DNA of 28,167 bases. Source: Nitrospirota bacterium (lineage in GTDB: Bacteria > Nitrospirota > UBA9217). Positions 774 through 13,250 of this stretch are shown here, piece after piece; within the stretch, counting starts at the first letter, position 1; each line of letters starts with the position of its first letter. The position numbers were made by a program, and so were the translations under genes. The stretch lies in contig DASPSR010000023.1 of NCBI GenBank assembly GCA_035623825.1, positions 1 to 28,167 of the forward strand. The letters run 5' to 3'. Below the pieces are notes generated by a model that was not told the DNA's origin, did not search any database, and saw nothing but the letters and a program-made list of their open reading frames with translations.

Positions 774-1280
774 TCAGATATCCAGGGTGATCGTCTTTTT
801 CGACGTCCTCAGCTTCGACTCAATGGCGGTTCTCAATTCGCTCAGGGAAAGGTCTCTGTTCTGCCCCTTCAGGAACTTCTGCATCGTCACCAGCGCATCA
901 TGTTCCACATCGAACGATAGGGGCCGCGACAGGTCGCCCACGATTTTCACCTCGCACCTGATGGTCCTCTTCTTCCCCTTCACCGCTACTTCCAGGTCCC
1001 TCTGTTGGAAGGTGATTTGCTGGAAGACATGGAGAGTGTCGATGCGGTGATACCCCGAGACTTTCAACTCTCGGGCGAGAAAACGCGCGATGACCCCCTC
1101 CTTCGCATCATCGGTGTCTATGATGATGATATTGCCCGGACGGTTTTTCTTGGTGATGCTGGAGACCAGCTGCACGTTGCGTGCGCCTAGTTCCATGATC
1201 CGCCCGATTGCGAAGCCAGTCACCTCGCCGGATACGTGGTCCACCTGTGCGAAGAGGAGGCGTGCCTTCTTCTTTTTCAC
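774..1280 (-). CDS. LarC-family (DUF111) nickel-insertase C-terminal-domain-like protein, stand-alone
   Basis: FAQVDHVSGEVTG...MELGARNV...ITKKNRPG and late DVEHDA match the LarC2 pattern (ETNIDD..GE...GAxDV...MKKxRPG; KPEYED). There is no His-rich N-terminal LarC1 part. The GTG start overlaps the upstream TGA (GTGA). Confidence 0.75.
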   Translation of the reverse strand: MKKKKARLLFAQVDHVSGEVTGFAIGRIMELGARNVQLVSSITKKNRPGNIIIIDTDDAKEGVIARFLARELKVSGYHRIDTLHVFQQITFQQRDLEVAVKGKKRTIRCEVKIVGDLSRPLSFDVEHDALVTMQKFLKGQNRDLSLSELRTAIESKLRTSKKTITLDI

Positions 1281-3049
1281 GAGAACACCAGCCCCTTCAT
1301 AATATCAGACGCCAGACGGGCGGCATGCTTGATATTTGGCGCAGGCAGTGCCAGCAGCACATCGGCAGCAGCCACCGCCTCCTTGGCTGCCGCATCAGGG
1401 TCCATTCCCATGACAGCCGCCATGCAGGCGCAGACGGTGACATCCAGAGAGGAGGCACCGGAGCAGAGCAAATCGATGATAGCGGGGGAGACCGCTGAGA
1501 TGGCGTCGATGGTCGCTTGGTCGGCGTTCATCAGGGCCTCGGGTGCGGCCTTTGCGAGGACATTGTCGAGACGATGGATCTTGCCGTCAATCTTTACCTC
1601 CACATCCACATAGGCGTCGAAGGCAAAGTGGCGCTGGGCAAAGACATGGGACCTCCGGCCCGACCCGGGCCGGACCTCCCTGAACCGTATGTACTCTATA
1701 TTGCGGCCGAGCCTTTTGCTCATCGCCTTTGCGACAGTCACTTCCAGTGATCCGATGAGCCTTTCCTGTGCGCCGCGAACTACCTCACGCAATGTCTTGC
1801 CGAGCTTCATATCGGTATAGGCTTGAAGAGCCCTCACAGCAACCGCATTGGTGAAGCCGGGCTCGGTGGCAGCAAGAATAGCATCCGTTACGGGACCCCG
1901 CTCGACGGTATCAGCCTTGCGGGCCAAAACGTTGGTGGCGGTGATGGCCTGGTCCCGCTGAAAATGCATGTCCATGGTCTTGTTGATGACGCCGATTATC
2001 TCCTCCTGAGGCGCTCCCTTACCCATCAGGTACAGGGCCAGCGTGGGCGAGGTGACCCAGTGATGTAGGGGTATCACCAGCGGTCCCCCGGACCTTCCCG
2101 CTCCGATGACTGAACCTTCCTGGATGATCGAACACAGCTCGGCGAACATAATCATTCCCACCACCGTTGGGGTTCCCGAGTCCTTGAGGATGATGGCAAG
2201 GTCCCCCACCACCCGTGCGGTGTTCAACTCCTCCCCGGTACCGCGGACATGGACAACGGCTGGAAGCTCAGCCTCCTCCACTGCGGCTTGGGCGATGGTC
2301 TCCGGAGTTCTCGTCACCATGAAGCTCCCGAACTCCTCGCCCACGTAAGCATCGGGATGAATGATCTCCAATGCCGCCGCGGCCCCATACAGGGCGGAAA
2401 ACCAGCGGTTCGGTTTCATGCCTGCGGAACCATACGCCTTGATCATGGCCTTCGTGCCAATACGGCTTAGCTTCTGTCCGAGCTTGGGAAATAGGTGGTC
2501 TTCGCCGATGGCTGAATGTCCGATGATGGGGCCGCCAGCGCCCAGCGGCAGGAAGCGTGAATCATAAGGGGCAAGGTGCTCGCTCTCTAAGGCCTGGTAA
2601 ATGGCGAGCGTCGCGGCAAAACCTGATATCTTGTTGTTCTGCTTCTCCGTAGGCATAGAGGAGATGCGGCCCGAGGGGATACCTGCGGCCATCCTCGTCA
2701 CCGCACCCAGTTTTCGGTTCGGGCAAGGCATGCCACACTGCACGTTCACCCCGGCCCAATACAGAAGAACTGCGGCGCAGAGCCCGGCGTTGGCCGGATC
2801 AGCGCCGCACTCCATCAGTTTCTTGACCGCCTTCCTCGCAATATCGTCCACATCGGTGTGGGCCTCGTCGGAGGGTTCGAGCTTCATATGCCTGCCCCTC
2901 CGCATCTCCCTGGCTATCACATTTGCCGCGGCCCAGATGCCGATATTGAAGGCGCCCCATCCGCCGAGACCGGCTTCGAGCTTGTCCACTGTCAGGTAAT
3001 CAGGCCGCGCAGTGACAGCCCTGAAAACAGCTATGATTTCACGTTCCAT
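1277..3049 (-). CDS. Conserved-looking protein of unknown function (590 aa)
   Basis: Long ORF with RBS (AGGAGA) and operon spacing of 34 bp after the methyltransferase and a 4-bp overlap with the larC-like gene. Motif-like segments: NRKLGAVTRMAAG, NNKISGFAA, IIGHSAIGED, LEIIHPDA, GDLAIILKD. No family I can name. Confidence 0.9.
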   Translation of the reverse strand: MEREIIAVFRAVTARPDYLTVDKLEAGLGGWGAFNIGIWAAANVIAREMRRGRHMKLEPSDEAHTDVDDIARKAVKKLMECGADPANAGLCAAVLLYWAGVNVQCGMPCPNRKLGAVTRMAAGIPSGRISSMPTEKQNNKISGFAATLAIYQALESEHLAPYDSRFLPLGAGGPIIGHSAIGEDHLFPKLGQKLSRIGTKAMIKAYGSAGMKPNRWFSALYGAAAALEIIHPDAYVGEEFGSFMVTRTPETIAQAAVEEAELPAVVHVRGTGEELNTARVVGDLAIILKDSGTPTVVGMIMFAELCSIIQEGSVIGAGRSGGPLVIPLHHWVTSPTLALYLMGKGAPQEEIIGVINKTMDMHFQRDQAITATNVLARKADTVERGPVTDAILAATEPGFTNAVAVRALQAYTDMKLGKTLREVVRGAQERLIGSLEVTVAKAMSKRLGRNIEYIRFREVRPGSGRRSHVFAQRHFAFDAYVDVEVKIDGKIHRLDNVLAKAAPEALMNADQATIDAISAVSPAIIDLLCSGASSLDVTVCACMAAVMGMDPDAAAKEAVAAADVLLALPAPNIKHAARLASDIMKGLVFS

Positions 3050-3083
3050 GATCTTTCTCCTACACAGGATTCGGACGCAAGGC

Positions 3084-4112
3084 TCAGACAGCCCATTCCC
3101 TCGCTACCCGCATGAACGCATGTATGTTTTCGTACGGCACACCGGGTGGGATGTCGCAGCCGGGCATGAGGATGAAACCTCCTCGAGTGCCGACTTTCTC
3201 GATGACATTACGGCACGCGTCCTCGACATCCTGTACCGTGCCTCTCAGGAGGACGTTCACCGGGTCCACATTCCCCGCAAAGCATATGGTGCCATGCAGT
3301 ATCTCTTTGGCCCGAACCATGTCCGTCTTGTGATCAAGGCTTATGCAGTGCACCCCTGTCCGGGGATAGAGGTCCAGCCGGTCCGTGGTGTTGCCGCAGA
3401 TATGCAGGATGGTACGCGCCCCTTTTCCGGCTGCCCAGCTGATGAAATCCTGCAGTTGGGGCAGCACGAATTGTTCGAACTGCTTTCTCGATATCAGATC
3501 CCCCGAGGCCGTCGGCTCGCCAAGCAGAATTAGGTCAAGAAGGCCAGGCGACAGAAGCGGTTCGTAAAAGAGCTTTAGCATGCTGACAGCAAACTCCGTC
3601 ACCGACTTCACTAGGCCGGGATTCTTGTAGAGCGCTTTCATCATGGCCTCTTCGCCGACCAGCCGTGCTCCTAGGGTAAAAGGCCCCCACGCCGTCAGCG
3701 TCACAGCATAGTTACCCAGTGCTTTGCTTACAACGCCATAGGCCTGACGAATGGTGGACAGAACGGGATCGCTGCTGATCCGCGAAAGATCGAGTCCCGT
3801 CAGGTCGGATTCCGCATGCACCAGGGTGCCTTCGAGGTCAGGCGTTCCGACATCGCGGTAGTTGATTGCGCATCCGAGTGCTGCAACAGGGAAATTGGGA
3901 TACCCGGAGCCCACGTAGACGATATCGCTCTTAAGCCTGTCAGCCATCTCCGTGATCATCCGGGCCATAAGGGATGAATCAGTTGACATTTGTTTGAAGG
4001 AAACACCGTATTCGCGCGCACTCCATGTGCCCGCGCCAATGAGAGCCGCCGGAATACGATCCGCCGTTTCGCGGTTCAGAGCCCTGTCTATCACTTCACG
4101 GGGCGTTTCCAC
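3084..4112 (-). CDS. UroD/MtaA/CmuA-family methyltransferase (methylcobamide:thiol MT2-like)
   Basis: GPFTLGARLVG, EPTASGDLIS, LHICG, AGNVDPV and MPGCDIP; the H-x-C...C zinc motif is intact. Probable start is GTG at 4112 with AGGAG just upstream (the ORF track starts at 4133). Confidence 0.88.
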   Translation of the reverse strand: METPREVIDRALNRETADRIPAALIGAGTWSAREYGVSFKQMSTDSSLMARMITEMADRLKSDIVYVGSGYPNFPVAALGCAINYRDVGTPDLEGTLVHAESDLTGLDLSRISSDPVLSTIRQAYGVVSKALGNYAVTLTAWGPFTLGARLVGEEAMMKALYKNPGLVKSVTEFAVSMLKLFYEPLLSPGLLDLILLGEPTASGDLISRKQFEQFVLPQLQDFISWAAGKGARTILHICGNTTDRLDLYPRTGVHCISLDHKTDMVRAKEILHGTICFAGNVDPVNVLLRGTVQDVEDACRNVIEKVGTRGGFILMPGCDIPPGVPYENIHAFMRVAREWAV

Positions 4113-4235
4113 TCTGCTTCTCCTGCCGTCCACACTAAATATACCATGGGAGATTTACCCAGTCATAAAGACATCAAAAAGACTCTCGCTAAGCTCTCAT
4201 AAATTATCTTCGAGCTAATAATTAATCAGAGATTG

Positions 4236-4274
4236 ACTTTATCACGATTTGTAAGGCTGGTCAAATTAATTTGA
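4236..4274 (-). promoter_or_regulatory. Putative sigma70 promoter of the methyltransferase operon with an overlapping palindromic operator
   Basis: The minus strand reads TTGACC-N17-TAAAGT. A perfect 14-bp palindrome TCAAATTAATTTGA (4261-4274) overlaps the -35 box. Confidence 0.5.
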
Positions 4275-4617: not shown

Positions 4618-5931
4618 TCAGACAAGACAGGATTTAAACGTCTTCAAATGCTTAGGATTTCCTTTGAACTTGATGCTACCCGTAATCATTACCCTAACAG
4701 GCGATATCTCTTCATTGAGCATGCGCACCCACGCTTCCGCATCGGCCCGGATACGCAGATCGGCAATACCCTGATGGCCCTCGCTGACAATAATTTTCCG
4801 ATTGGCAATATTGATGGTTGCCTCCCGCTCGGTACCGCCTGTGAACGTAAACTGCAGGTTCAGCTTTACTCCTTCAGCCTTCTCAGGATTGAACAGTAGC
4901 GTAACGCCGTCCAGGAAGCTTCCAATCGAAGCGGGCCTAATTGTATTCTTGACGTAGCGAACGGTCTTTGCCGTGTTTGACCGGGCTGTCTTTTCAGCCC
5001 GTGTTCCCTTTATCACATAGACCGGCTCCCTTTTCTCGCGCAGCGGTCTGACGATGGCTTGAACATAAGCTTTCTTGTCTCTACGGTACGCCTCCACTGT
5101 TTCTTCGCCTGCAGGGCAGACTGCCATACAATAGGAGCATCGGTAGCTATGACCGTATGTCAGGGATTCCCATTTTGCGATGGTCTCGTAGTCGCGGAAT
5201 TGGGCGCGATACGACCGGACGCTTCCCGATGAGACGATCTTTTCAATCCATTCTTGAAATCCTCCGAACAGTTCGTGATAATTATGCATCGCACAGGACA
5301 TGAAATCCAGGCCTTCGTCCATGCGAATCGCCCCCACCGGACATACGGAGATGCACAGTCCGCAGCGAAAACAAGGAGATTCCGGTAACGGCTGATCATA
5401 GCGGTCGAGAGGAACATTGATCAATATCGTATCTAGTATGACGTGATTGCCAAACTTCGGGTGGATTATCACCCGGTGTACGCCCATCATGCCGAGACCG
5501 GCCTCCGATGCCACAATCTTGTGGCTCACTTCCCAGAGTTTTCCCGGCCAGCGGGTGGTATCCATGGGAAAGGCGGGCGGCACGGCAATGCCGCGTATTC
5601 CCTTCGAGTTCAGACGTCGAATAATCCGGAAAGCGGCATCGGCCAGGCGCTCAATGGTCTTTGCGAATTCCCAGTCGGCAACCGACGTCGACGGGCTGGT
5701 AACGCTTTCGCGGTTCGCCCGTACCAGAAGGGACACGGCCGTGGCTGCCCCGGGGAAAATCCTCAGCATAGCATCGCGCTCCGGCTCGAGCGCAGGACGG
5801 CCAATATCGACAAATCCAGCGTCATCCGCGCCCTCCTCAAGACAGATTTTTCGAAGATCGTCCGCGGACAGTGTATTGTTGCAGCAGTCCTTGTTTGCCA
5901 GATCGACGAGTTTGTGATCATTAGCATTCAT
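4618..5931 (-). CDS. Epoxyqueuosine-reductase/reductive-dehalogenase-like 2x[4Fe-4S] protein with C-terminal SCP2 sterol-carrier domain
   Basis: N-terminal GADDAGF, SHKIVASEAGLG..G..IIHPKFG, CFRCGLCISVCP, C...CSYCMAVCP. The C-terminal FNPEKAEG..LQFTFTG...ADLRIRAD...GSIKFKGN is SCP2-like. Confidence 0.82.
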   Translation of the reverse strand: MNANDHKLVDLANKDCCNNTLSADDLRKICLEEGADDAGFVDIGRPALEPERDAMLRIFPGAATAVSLLVRANRESVTSPSTSVADWEFAKTIERLADAAFRIIRRLNSKGIRGIAVPPAFPMDTTRWPGKLWEVSHKIVASEAGLGMMGVHRVIIHPKFGNHVILDTILINVPLDRYDQPLPESPCFRCGLCISVCPVGAIRMDEGLDFMSCAMHNYHELFGGFQEWIEKIVSSGSVRSYRAQFRDYETIAKWESLTYGHSYRCSYCMAVCPAGEETVEAYRRDKKAYVQAIVRPLREKREPVYVIKGTRAEKTARSNTAKTVRYVKNTIRPASIGSFLDGVTLLFNPEKAEGVKLNLQFTFTGGTEREATINIANRKIIVSEGHQGIADLRIRADAEAWVRMLNEEISPVRVMITGSIKFKGNPKHLKTFKSCLV

Positions 5932-6482: not shown

Positions 6483-6722
6483 TTAAGGATTTTCTGGCTT
6501 TGTCTTCAAGATACCAACAATTTCATTGAAGTCGGGAAAGCGCCTCGTCGCTTTTTTGGAAAATATCAGTTTATCATCTACCGCAACCTCAAAGGCGCCA
6601 ATCTCCTGAGAGTGTATTAATTCGGGTTTCATGCCGATTTCTGTTTCTATTAGGCGAGAAAGGCTGGCAGCGATCGGCCTGTAATTGCAGGTGCCGCAAT
6701 ATGATATGGACAATTTCTTCAT
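6483..6722 (-). CDS. Rdx family (SelW/SelT/SelH-like) redoxin, Cys homologue
   Basis: ISYCGTCNYRP...GAFEVAVDDKLIFSKK..RFP carries CxxC where selenoprotein homologues have CxxU. ATG at 6722 has a GGAGG RBS. Confidence 0.85.
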   Translation of the reverse strand: MKKLSISYCGTCNYRPIAASLSRLIETEIGMKPELIHSQEIGAFEVAVDDKLIFSKKATRRFPDFNEIVGILKTKPENP

Positions 6723-6879
6723 ATTTTTATCCTCCATGGCTGCTTTCAAGATATGCACTATTGGCAATCCTAGGGAGACGACGGAGTCGTTTGCCTTTTT
6801 TTTAAAGAAGATTAACCGAAAACTGAACTATATTATAGCAGACCGATTGACAAGATATCACCCTGCCACGCGACCGCGT

Positions 6880-8802
6880 CTACTCATCGAACTTGATGAT
6901 TTTTCTGTTTTTCATGATATGGGCTTCTATCTCGTCCGCTGCCTTCACAGGATCTTCCTCGCAGAACAATCTGCCGCCGGTCACATTGACCAGATCTTGT
7001 GTCAAATATTGCACTACCCGTGGGCTTCCGCTTATCATCGGCTCAGGTGACACATAGGTGAGCAGGCCGTAGGAAAGAGCGGTGAAGATGTCGGCAATCG
7101 CCTTCTGCTCCATGTATTCGGGTACGGCCGCTGCAACGGGCAACTCGCTCGAATCGCAGCCAATCGTCCAGCACAGGGCAGCCACGGTATCGAGGATTTT
7201 CCCCACGTCGGTGCATGAACCGTAGGAGACGATAGGCGGCACATCATATTTTTCACAGATCGACCTCAGTTCCGGCCCTGCGTGTTTCGCCATCTCCTTT
7301 GTCGAAAGGCCGAGATTCTGGTGGGTTGAGGAACAGCATCCCGCGCCGATAACCATGATATTCCGTTTGATTAATTCCATTGTCAGCTTGTGGATCGCGT
7401 TTCCTCCCTGTCCATGGCGGACGGTAGTGCAGCCCGCGACAGCCACCGCGCCCTTTATGTTTCCCTTTTTCATCTCCTCGATATAGCTGTAGATGCTGTT
7501 GCCGAACATCTTGAGCACCGTCTCGGTGGTATATCCTGCGATGCAGTTGGTCTTTGTCTCGTGTGAGGGTAGGTTGACGATCCTCTTGCTGCCATTCCCG
7601 CGCCTCGACCTAAACTGTTCGATTGCGGTCTCTACCACCTGCGTCGCCTGTTTGTCTGCGATCTCGGGATCGAAATCAAGCGTGTCGACGTCGGGGAAGC
7701 GTACCACGGGGTCCGTACTGATCAGCTTCGTGCCGTATTTGTCGGCAAAGGTCTTCAATGTCGGTACCGAACAGTTCATATCCATCAGAAAGAGATCGAC
7801 CACGCCGGTAGCGATAAAGAGCTCTTCCTGAATCCAATTGCCCAACTGCCCGCCGAAGACATTTGCGTATTCACCACGGCCGGACACGTTCATGAGCTGC
7901 TGTCCCTCGCAAAGAGAGCCGTAGAGCTTTATGCCCTTTGCGCCAGCCTTTTTGGCCTGGGACTGGTAGCGTTCGCTGCCGGCCTTCTCCATGATAAGGC
8001 TTGCAAACAGCGGCTGATGGCCGTTGGCGATGATATTCACCGTTTCCGGATCGAGACAGGCGATGTTATTTTGTCCCGGGACAAGGTCTGCGGTCCCCAT
8101 AATGATGTCTTGCATGACGGTGATTCCCCAAAGCGCAACGTACTCGTTTGCGTTGCCGAGTCTCAGCGCGGTCTTGAGCAGGTCGATCGGATCGTTGCTC
8201 ACATTGGTCATGCACTTTGTCAGCGCTGTAAGTATCTCTGAACTCGTCCCACCGGGGTAAAGCCCCTCTTTTTTCCAGACTTCCTTCCTTCTGTCGAGCG
8301 CAAAAAGGTCCATGAGCTTGAGAGGATCATTGACCGGCTTGGCGATTTCATTGAGGATAAAGTCGGCAAAGATGACGGCGAGTTCGTTTGCCGGTTTCGT
8401 GTGGTCGATCCCAAGGCCTTGACACATACGCTGGAGTTTTACCTCGTCCTTTATCCGGAGAGGTGACCTTCCCTCGCCGATCGCCTTTAACGTGTTGGCG
8501 AGATTACGACACTGGTACGTGTTTGCGGCAGTGCCGATGATCGCCAATTGAAGCAGATTCCGTGCGACGATCAGGTCGCCTGTGGCGCCGCAGACGCCCA
8601 GAGGCGCCTTCGCGCTGATTCTGCAAGGGCCGTCGGAACAAAGCTGACAGCTCAATCCCTTCCTGCAGTGACCGCACTGCGGCTGCTGCGCCTCGAAGCG
8701 CTCAAATACCGTGCTCATGCCCTGAGAGAGTGCAGCCATATGCACTTCATGGCTCTGCACATCTTGATGTCTTCCGTTTACGAGCGGTTTATTTTTTGTC
8801 AT
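6880..8802 (-). CDS. cooS: Anaerobic CO dehydrogenase catalytic subunit-like protein (CODH/HCP superfamily), divergent
   Basis: QPQCGHC...CQLCSDGPC...GVCGA (D and B clusters); NGHQP, LCEGQQ, DMNCS, AGCTT, AGCCS and GSCTD (C-cluster ligand positions); EYMEQKA. ATG at 8802 follows AAGGGGGG. Confidence 0.9.
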   Translation of the reverse strand: MTKNKPLVNGRHQDVQSHEVHMAALSQGMSTVFERFEAQQPQCGHCRKGLSCQLCSDGPCRISAKAPLGVCGATGDLIVARNLLQLAIIGTAANTYQCRNLANTLKAIGEGRSPLRIKDEVKLQRMCQGLGIDHTKPANELAVIFADFILNEIAKPVNDPLKLMDLFALDRRKEVWKKEGLYPGGTSSEILTALTKCMTNVSNDPIDLLKTALRLGNANEYVALWGITVMQDIIMGTADLVPGQNNIACLDPETVNIIANGHQPLFASLIMEKAGSERYQSQAKKAGAKGIKLYGSLCEGQQLMNVSGRGEYANVFGGQLGNWIQEELFIATGVVDLFLMDMNCSVPTLKTFADKYGTKLISTDPVVRFPDVDTLDFDPEIADKQATQVVETAIEQFRSRRGNGSKRIVNLPSHETKTNCIAGYTTETVLKMFGNSIYSYIEEMKKGNIKGAVAVAGCTTVRHGQGGNAIHKLTMELIKRNIMVIGAGCCSSTHQNLGLSTKEMAKHAGPELRSICEKYDVPPIVSYGSCTDVGKILDTVAALCWTIGCDSSELPVAAAVPEYMEQKAIADIFTALSYGLLTYVSPEPMISGSPRVVQYLTQDLVNVTGGRLFCEEDPVKAADEIEAHIMKNRKIIKFDE

Positions 8803-8824
8803 ACCCTTACCCCCCTTTAGTCGC

Positions 8825-8868
8825 ATGATAACAGGGAGAGACCGGTATCTTTATGATATAAATCATAA
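8825..8868 (-). promoter_or_regulatory. CRP/FNR-family-type binding site centred at about -41.5 plus extended -10 of cooS
   Basis: Perfect inverted repeat TTATGAT-N4-ATCATAA at 8851-8868 and TGT-TATCAT extended -10 (hexamer 8825-8830), giving class II activator geometry. Confidence 0.7.
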
Positions 8869-12653: not shown

Positions 12654-13250
12654 TCACCGTTTTCCGTAATCTGTGAAGACGTAGTCTCGCGCCTTTACGA
12701 TCGTATGGCATGCGAATCCGCACTTGGCGTCGTTCCCCTGCGGCGGCATGTCGGCCATGGTGCCGGGCGTGAAGGTCCCGGACGCGGCGTCATACTTGAA
12801 CACGGCCCATCCCCATCCGCCGCTGTCCGCGAACCTCTTGCTGTCCTTCACCATGAAGTCGACGTCATGCAGCGCGCCCGGCACCGTCGCGGCGGGGAAT
12901 GTCTCCATCTTTTTCGGGTCCCAATGGATCTTCGCCATCTTGGAGCCGTCAGGGAACGGCTTGCCGTTGCCGGGAACGCCGGCCCGGTAGGCGTCGATCA
13001 TCACGGGGTTGGCGAGGATCGCAGCAAACAAGGGTCCATCCTCGCTGATGGAGACAAGGTGCCAGTCTTCGTATCCCCTGAACTCAGAGAATGCAAGCCC
13101 ATTCGGCACTTGCACAGTGTACTTGTCCTGCCCGGCAAGGACCATGCTTCCCAAGAAAGCGAGCAATACCACGATGATCACAATCGCCGAGATGCTTTTG
13201 ATTTTCATCTTCGATGCCGTTCCTGCAGAATCTTCATTCCGTGCTTTCAT
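12654..13250 (-). CDS. Cytochrome P460 family protein (exported)
   Basis: FSEFRGYEDW, ILANP, FPDGSKMAKIHW, DFMVKDSKRF..SGGWGWAVF, and C-terminal heme motif CGFACH followed by DYVFT. N-terminal hydrophobic signal; GGGAGG RBS. Confidence 0.88.
   Translation of the reverse strand: MKARNEDSAGTASKMKIKSISAIVIIVVLLAFLGSMVLAGQDKYTVQVPNGLAFSEFRGYEDWHLVSISEDGPLFAAILANPVMIDAYRAGVPGNGKPFPDGSKMAKIHWDPKKMETFPAATVPGALHDVDFMVKDSKRFADSGGWGWAVFKYDAASGTFTPGTMADMPPQGNDAKCGFACHTIVKARDYVFTDYGKR

Follow-up and report, generated by a model that had tools for sequence, protein, structure and literature searches.

What does a 590-residue protein of an unnamed family do when it is encoded between an MtaA-like methyltransferase and a stand-alone LarC2-like protein? 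The question is raised by an operon on contig DASPSR010000023.1 of the Nitrospirota bacterium assembly GCA_035623825.1, whose 28,167 nucleotides are referred to here as the window. Three co-directional open reading frames (ORFs) on the minus strand at 774-4133 were confirmed to be tightly coupled. The first gene (3084..4133) encodes an MtaA-like zinc methyltransferase of the URO-D family, as a 349-aa ORF from GTG; an alternative GTG at 4112, with AGGAGA ahead of it, yields a 342-aa protein, the length of its relatives, and is likely the start of the gene. A gap of 34 bp (3050-3083) containing GGAG separates it from an ATG-initiated gene (1277..3049) for the 590-aa protein, named X590 here, a candidate nickel-pincer-cofactor enzyme of a closed family. 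The stop codon of X590 overlaps, as GTGA at 1277-1280, with the GTG start of the third gene (774..1280), which encodes the 168-aa LarC2-like protein, the conserved partner of X590. The coupling, the gap and the overlap, now borne out by the ORFs at 774-1280, 1277-3049 and 3084-4133, had been reported in a preliminary description of this DNA. That description placed X590 in the slot of MT1, the substrate-specific methyltransferase of corrinoid systems. We tentatively favour another reading, to which we give slightly less than an even chance: X590 may be a user of the nickel-pincer nucleotide cofactor built on a new scaffold, with the LarC2-like protein as its dedicated CTP-dependent partner, coupled at this locus to corrinoid methyl transfer.

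The X590 family and its LarC2-like partner

The X590 protein from the window has no match in Pfam or NCBIfam. Fifteen diverse members of the family gave no Lar_N or LarA_C match (E up to 1) and no recurrent Pfam match, with ten families hit by one member each at a best E of 0.0018. A word-indexed search returned 170 close homologues of about 589 aa. The best 120 of these share 53-100% identity with X590, are nearly all about 589 aa long and carry no Pfam domain. All but one of the named homologues are labelled hypothetical or uncharacterised, and the homologues are labelled as coming from, among others, Nitrospirota, Nitrospinota, Desulfobacterales, Desulfofundulus, Moorellales and Thermoleophilia; one carrier in culture is Desulfofundulus thermobenzoicus (WP_152947659). 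Among 1.84 billion representatives, a profile search gave 177 matches at E ≤ 0.001; of the matches listed, 14 span the full length (587-627 aa) and the others are shorter. Metagenomes contributed a second clade, with 35-40% identity. X590 thus founds a small, closed protein family. We found no description of this family, nor of the URO-D/LarC2 coupling, in the literature searched, which did not extend to subscription papers. The accession numbers of its members were likewise not found there, and they are absent from the 12 of the 17 supplementary files of PMC13524815 that were searched.

Across 83 sequences from both clades (35-100% identity), 96 positions of X590 are at least 95% conserved. 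They include K73, K113, K136, K140, K289, H178, H231 and H330, and no cysteine. The motifs GHSAIGED, EIIHPDA and PLHH had been singled out as a possible metal site; their residues H178, E183, D184, E228, H231, D233 and H330 do each reach at least 95% conservation in this set, and the evidence described below favours a nickel-pincer cofactor over a simple metal site.

The structure prediction and fold search that had been proposed for X590 gave a confident, mainly helical AlphaFold model (pLDDT 89.5, pTM 0.91) and no fold match in the PDB. Foldseek returned nothing at E ≤ 0.001 for the whole model. Full structural alignment against 48,161 PDB chains gave a best Z of 6.3 (3zta_A, 89 residues aligned, rmsd 3.7) and none with Z ≥ 8, and a further structural search of the PDB gave a best Z of 5.3. 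The conserved core, residues 60-345, was also folded alone (pLDDT 86.2); its best match had a Z of 3.9 (9b7y_D, 182 aligned, rmsd 5.8), and Foldseek again found none at E ≤ 0.001. The model of X590 thus appears to match no PDB fold, with Z values at noise level, which does not prove that the fold is new. A likeness to McrA (1e6v_D, Z 5.7 over 113 residues; Z 3.7 over 136 for the core) was rejected as lying in the noise range, where McrB (5n28_B, Z 2.9) also appears. Profile searches of the PDB returned only a designed repeat protein and 4h7l (1.7e-4, about 80 residues), and the ESM Atlas held no usable match. X590 is likely soluble, since no 19-residue Kyte-Doolittle window reaches 1.6 (maximum 1.57). 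Homology to LarC1 was rejected, as hhalign against nine full-length LarC proteins gives a probability of 0.1%.

The 168-aa protein matches the C-terminal third of Pfam PF01969 (positions 242-362 of 375) with 49.3 bits (cut-off 22.1). A profile of 44 LarC2-like proteins aligned with the LarC2 domain of nine full-length LarC proteins at a probability of 96% (hhalign, E 3.8e-9, 144 columns). Both results uphold the LarC2-like identity first given to this protein. The LarC2-like proteins and the LarC2 domain share a KKxRPG motif, and D14 and G32-A33 are also retained; the nucleotide-binding signature of the domain is thereby preserved. In LarC, CTP binds to the LarC2 domain, which CMPylates the cofactor precursor, and LarC1 then inserts the nickel (PMC13510736). 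CTP binding and CMPylation by the LarC2-like protein are predicted from these retained motifs.

Nickel-pincer genes and the proposed cofactor

Loci carrying X590 were collected from genomes (13) and metagenomes (80). After merging those with at least 97% identical X590 DNA and removing the window's own copy (L027), 77 non-redundant loci remained, 44 of clade 1 and 33 of clade 2, with L012 merged with L005. Neighbouring families were assigned by hidden Markov models (HMMs) on six-frame translations, and representatives were named by NCBIfam. Of the 45 loci with at least 1.2 kb on each side, 43 have a LarC2-like gene no more than 1.2 kb from X590 (24/25 in clade 1, the miss being L057; 19/20 in clade 2, the miss being L094). 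In the first genome set it lies beside X590 in all 12 loci with room for it. LarB, LarE or a LarC1-only gene is found within 7 kb in 15 of the 28 loci with at least 4 kb on both sides, hereafter well-flanked loci (6/17 in clade 1, 9/11 in clade 2). These neighbours score above the NCBIfam cut-offs, with 298-305 bits for LarB (cut-off 175), 316-340 for LarE (150) and 188 for the LarC1-only protein (90). X590 and the LarC2-like protein are the family-wide constants, and nickel-pincer biosynthesis genes are the next commonest neighbours; no observation assigns X590 to the MT1 slot. The encoding of LarB, LarE and LarC alongside, expected of the nickel-pincer class, is seen in relatives and not in the window or its own assembly.

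Clade 1 comprises two mutually exclusive types. The first, to which the window belongs, carries URO-D. The second lacks it and has the order GntR, four small unnamed proteins, X590, a DUF2267-like protein, LarC2-like, LarE, LarB. L012, of the URO-D type, encodes in turn flavodoxin, LarE, LarB, a clade-2 X590 paralogue, URO-D, X590, the LarC2-like protein and LarC1. L005 and L012 are two contigs of one metagenome-assembled genome, in which the URO-D/X590/LarC2-like block is present in two copies whose DNA is at least 97% identical and whose flanks differ; LarE, LarB, the clade-2 paralogue and LarC1 are in L012 and not in L005. The repeated block stems either from a recent duplication or from an artefact of assembly. 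Of the 11 well-flanked clade-2 loci, 7 have a LarC1-only gene after the LarC2-like gene. Four clade-2 loci (L084, L086, L091 and L097) have a divergent AraC/FtrA-like regulator and a beta-etherase-like glutathione S-transferase directly upstream of X590, which is followed by the LarC2-like protein, LarC1 and LarB. No recurring substrate clue besides this transferase and regulator was found in the clade-2 neighbourhoods.

At the genome level, all ten X590-bearing relatives carry a full-length LarC gene separate from the X590 locus; nine of these are confirmed by NCBIfam and the tenth is cut by a contig end. LarB exceeds its cut-off in four of five related genomes and LarE in all five. Lar_N, the mark of LarA, was found in none of the ten. 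Because these genomes have the cofactor genes and no LarA, the role of cofactor user is open for X590. In a sample of the phylum, LarC is present in 149 of 201 genomes, including 43 of the 44 of the family and both of the genus, and X590 is present in one, that of the window. X590 is thus not needed to make the cofactor, and being dispensable for its synthesis it fits a user better than a biosynthetic step. Lar_N is also missing from the window genome (G000), and many genomes of the phylum seem to make the pincer cofactor for users yet to be identified.

The linkage to a LarC2-like gene and to Lar genes is the signature by which the nickel-pincer enzyme NphT was found, and X590 is read as a user of the cofactor on this ground. 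X590 and the LarC2-like protein make up a conserved two-gene module. We propose that X590 would use the product of LarB, LarE and LarC, the nickel-pincer nucleotide cofactor (NPN/NPMN), for hydride shuttling or related Ni-C chemistry on its substrate. The LarC2-like protein would be dedicated to X590, loading the cofactor onto it or activating the cofactor there in a CTP-dependent manner. A role in maturation, as first suggested for it, is plausible, and the evidence points to the nickel-pincer nucleotide cofactor. In addition, it could produce a cytidine-dinucleotide form of the cofactor, which is conceivable because an adenine-dinucleotide form has been reported (cited in PMC13524815). LarA and NphT bind the cofactor through a lysine and a histidine (PMC13524815). 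The invariant lysines and histidines of X590 are candidate residues for a lysine tether, a histidine nickel ligand or both. In intact-mass measurements, LarA and NphT showed an adduct of roughly 450 Da.

Several observations weigh against this proposal. The LarC2-like protein scores 40.8 bits with the LarC2 model NF052512, under the cut-off of 50, whereas bona fide LarC2 domains in relatives reach 129-161 bits. Its closest solved relative is the uncharacterised MK0293 (3c19, 6.3e-5), and LarC2 itself (6bwo) is reached at E = 1. X590 is not LarC1-like, which leaves its relation to the LarC2-like partner structurally unexplained, and its conserved lysines and histidines are not specific evidence for cofactor binding. 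Among the URO-D-type loci no Lar genes lie nearby (0/22), L012 being the sole exception. The co-occurrence of LarC and X590 at the genome level is weak evidence because LarC is common in the phylum. Finally, in the window's own assembly (89.65% complete) there is no full LarC, PF01969 being matched by the LarC2-like protein only, so that a LarC1 companion is lacking in the assembly as in the window. The assembly also holds no LarA, no LarB (not even a PurE-type match) and no LarE above the cut-off, and local HMMs for LarB, LarE and LarC found nothing in it. An assembly gap is the likelier reason for these missing genes, because 43 of the 44 genomes of the family and both of the genus have LarC, and the absence likely reflects such a gap.

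The same observations bear on a second reading, in which the pair is a nickel-free CTP-dependent enzyme: the LarC2-like protein would CMPylate a substrate, X590 would convert it, and the Lar genes would lie nearby because of a common precursor pool or common regulation. LarC2 is indeed the CMPylating domain (PMC13510736), and the LarC2-like gene stays beside X590 in the URO-D-type loci, where LarC1, LarB and LarE are elsewhere. The missing Lar genes of the window's assembly would also fit, as would a QRPTase (NadC) gene near X590 in L063. What this reading hardly explains is why LarC1, LarB or LarE lie inside the clusters in more than half of the well-flanked loci if no pincer cofactor is involved, and we consider it unlikely, though it survives better than the other alternatives.

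The methyltransferase and probable corrinoid-dependent methyl transfer

The URO-D protein matches PF01208 over positions 2-346 of 346 (7.5e-54, 183.5 bits, cut-off 23.9). Its best NCBIfam match is the MtaA/CmuA family TIGR01463, with 156 bits, under the cut-off of 235.4, and it scores 124 and 121 with the MtaA and MtbA equivalog models (cut-offs 400 and 600). Its closest PDB sequence is MtaA 4ay7 (9.4e-22). Residues H244, C246 and C326, which we take to be zinc ligands, are invariant in 31 of 31 URO-D-like sequences and align to LHICGN and PGC of 4ay7. The description of this protein as an MtaA-like enzyme with an intact H-x-C...C site is therefore sound.

No LarA, LarB, LarE, corrinoid protein or RACo was found among the scanned window ORFs (beyond 8 kb, ORFs of at least 100 aa), as first noted. 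A complete corrinoid methyltransferase cluster does lie elsewhere in the genome (G000), on contig C33 at 37875-46952 (locus L016), in the order MTHFR, a response-regulator-like protein of 113 aa, URO-D, a CMD-like protein of 175 aa, MtrH, URO-D, corrinoid protein, Fe-S protein, RACo. The methyl-transfer machinery missing from the window thus exists in the same genome, and the closest URO-D paralogue of the window protein in this genome (53% identical) belongs to this cluster. A gene for a CobW-family GTPase stands beside the cluster on the opposite strand.

These genes bear on the original proposal, upheld only in part, in which X590 would be a new MT1 with its own substrate specificity and would methylate a corrinoid protein, with the MtaA-like protein as MT2 and the LarC2-like protein maturing the metal site of X590. 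Membership of X590 in a known MT1 family (MtaB, MttB/MtgB, MtmB, MtbB or the URO-D-type O-demethylase MT1) was rejected for want of a Pfam or NCBIfam match; fold searches also list none of these families, which is weak evidence alone. X590 is thus, as originally stated, unlike any recognised MT1 family by Pfam, NCBIfam and PDB comparison, so a new MT1 would be possible. The URO-D gene adjoins X590, within 1.5 kb upstream, in 20 of the 31 clade-1 loci with at least 1.2 kb upstream. In two independent loci of the URO-D type, L039 and the L041-L043 group, a corrinoid protein (near the URO-D gene in L039 and L041) and RACo are encoded within about 6 kb upstream of URO-D/X590, together with DUF1638 and a second URO-D gene. 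The complete corrinoid system on C33 could serve in trans. Linkage to methyltransferase and corrinoid genes, which had been named as a check, is thus found in clade 1; in clade 2, URO-D is present in 0 of the 24 loci examined in the same way. Nor do the clade-1 loci of the second type have URO-D, and both groups carry Lar genes instead. Moreover, L039, with two URO-D proteins, a corrinoid protein and RACo, has a complete four-part set of the demethylase type without counting X590, and X590 has no conserved cysteine or zinc-type site. We regard an MT1 role for X590 as distinctly unlikely.

The window represents a subtype in which the X590/LarC2-like module is tightly coupled to an MtaA-type zinc methyltransferase; under the cofactor reading that we favour, methyl transfer would run through the corrinoid protein and RACo encoded on C33. 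Given the tight coupling to an MtaA-type methyltransferase, the reaction of X590 is probably tied to thiol or ether methylation or demethylation, and it probably feeds or follows corrinoid-dependent methyl transfer. A bolder version, improbable enough that we offer it as speculation, would make X590, with a new fold and a nickel-pincer cofactor, possibly in a cytidine-dinucleotide form supplied by its LarC2-like partner, the substrate-side partner of a corrinoid methyltransferase system. If true, Ni-C pincer chemistry would here be coupled to cobalamin methyl transfer for the first time in bacteria, and the substrates of X590 could be methyl thioethers or methyl ethers that lie beyond the reach of known MT1 enzymes.

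It is very improbable that X590 and the LarC2-like protein are instead a nickel-delivery or maturation factor for a neighbouring CO dehydrogenase (CODH): a CooS-type CODH gene lies within 7 kb in 6 of the 17 well-flanked clade-1 loci, and one is in the window at 6880-8826, but none is found in the 11 of clade 2, the CODHs near second-type loci are just 27% identical to that of the window, a metallochaperone would not typically be a protein of 590 aa with more than 53% conservation across phyla, and the linkage to LarB and LarE would be left unexplained.

Surroundings of the operon and comparison with known systems

Upstream of the operon, a promoter-like site on the minus strand (TTGACC-17-TAAAGT at 4264-4236) and a perfect 14-bp palindrome, TCAAATTAATTTGA, at 4274-4261, overlapping its -35 hexamer, together span 4236..4274. 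The region holds 6 promoter-like sites, against 2.3 ± 1.5 in shuffled sequences. A single promoter with a palindromic operator had been proposed here. The promoter-like site and the palindrome are both present, and the operator role is without comparative support, because the palindrome is exact in the window's own copy only and has at least 4 mismatches upstream of the URO-D gene in 25 other loci.

Further upstream on the same strand, at 4618..5931, a 437-aa Fe-S protein combines a QueG/RDH-like ferredoxin part with an SCP2-like C-terminus. We mention it as context and do not claim it as a member of the operon. A paralogue adjoins the corrinoid protein on C33; among the X590 loci it is seen in the window's own copy, weakly in L068 and L083, and in no others. 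The CODH gene (TIGR01702, 622 bits) is also on the same strand upstream of the operon and is followed by a gene for a SelW/Rdx-family CxxC protein, the two occupying 6483-8826. Downstream, a DUF362 gene at 1-501 is cut by the contig end. A 79%-identical copy lies at the end of contig C54, and identical 42-residue DUF362 pieces lie at the ends of contigs C62 and C15; at this repeat the assembly breaks off, shortly beyond the LarC2-like gene.

The G+C content of window positions 1001-4000, covering the operon, is 0.56-0.61, against 0.46-0.47 in the flanks. This excess and the presence of X590 in a single genome of the phylum sample are compatible with horizontal acquisition. Contig C10 has a tetranucleotide correlation of 0.905 with the remaining genome, the eighth lowest of 45 contigs, and is no clear outlier. 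A cytochrome P460 family gene at 12654-13250 stands among stress-type genes (Usp, OsmC, thioredoxin-like) and is unrelated to the operon. No RNA data were found among 9 sequencing runs; each is marked 'DNA?' and described as peat metagenome, and 3 of the runs may be sources of this DNA.

The nickel-pincer cofactor is made by hundreds of prokaryotes that have no LarA, and the non-LarA users reported are two, the aldo-keto reductase (AKR)-type NphT and an ornithine cyclodeaminase, the latter as cited in the same source (PMC13524815). NphT and related AKR-fold nickel-pincer enzymes were described in Nat Chem 2026 (PMC13524815). The discovery pipeline profiles Pfam co-occurrence (PMC13524815); X590 would not be listed by it, because X590 has no Pfam model. 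If our reading is true, X590 would be a further, structurally unrelated user of the cofactor, invisible to Pfam-based neighbourhood mining. Its private LarC2-like partner may reveal the way in which the cofactor is transferred or altered, and the coupling to MtaA-type methyltransferases and CODH in anaerobes of peat and sediment would point to a new step of one-carbon or methylated-compound metabolism.

The logic that led to NphT was the same, a non-LarA protein adjoining LarB, LarC and LarE (PMC13524815). NphT, an AKR with a TIM barrel, has about 290 aa and falls in PF00248, whereas X590 belongs to no Pfam family. LarA, of the lactate racemase superfamily, is encoded beside larB, larC and larE, as X590 is in relatives of the window. 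Unlike LarA, X590 has no Lar_N or LarA_C domain, is mainly helical and has a LarC2-like partner of its own, and it is 590 aa long compared with about 420 aa (PMC13524815). LarC, the CTP-dependent cyclometallase composed of LarC1 and LarC2, has the LarC2 homology and the KKxRPG motif in common with the 168-aa protein, which in clade 2 is followed by a stand-alone LarC1. Unlike LarC, the 168-aa protein stands alone, falls under the LarC2 cut-off and is kept beside X590 despite a fused LarC in the same genomes. With MtaA, MtbA and the bacterial O-demethylase methyltransferases, the first protein of the operon shares the URO-D fold and the His-x-Cys...Cys site. The corrinoid protein and RACo/RamA of those systems are seen in some related loci and on C33, and not in the window. 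Unlike the MtaA/CmuA family, the URO-D protein of the window stays under the family cut-off and is coupled to the pair of X590 and the LarC2-like protein.

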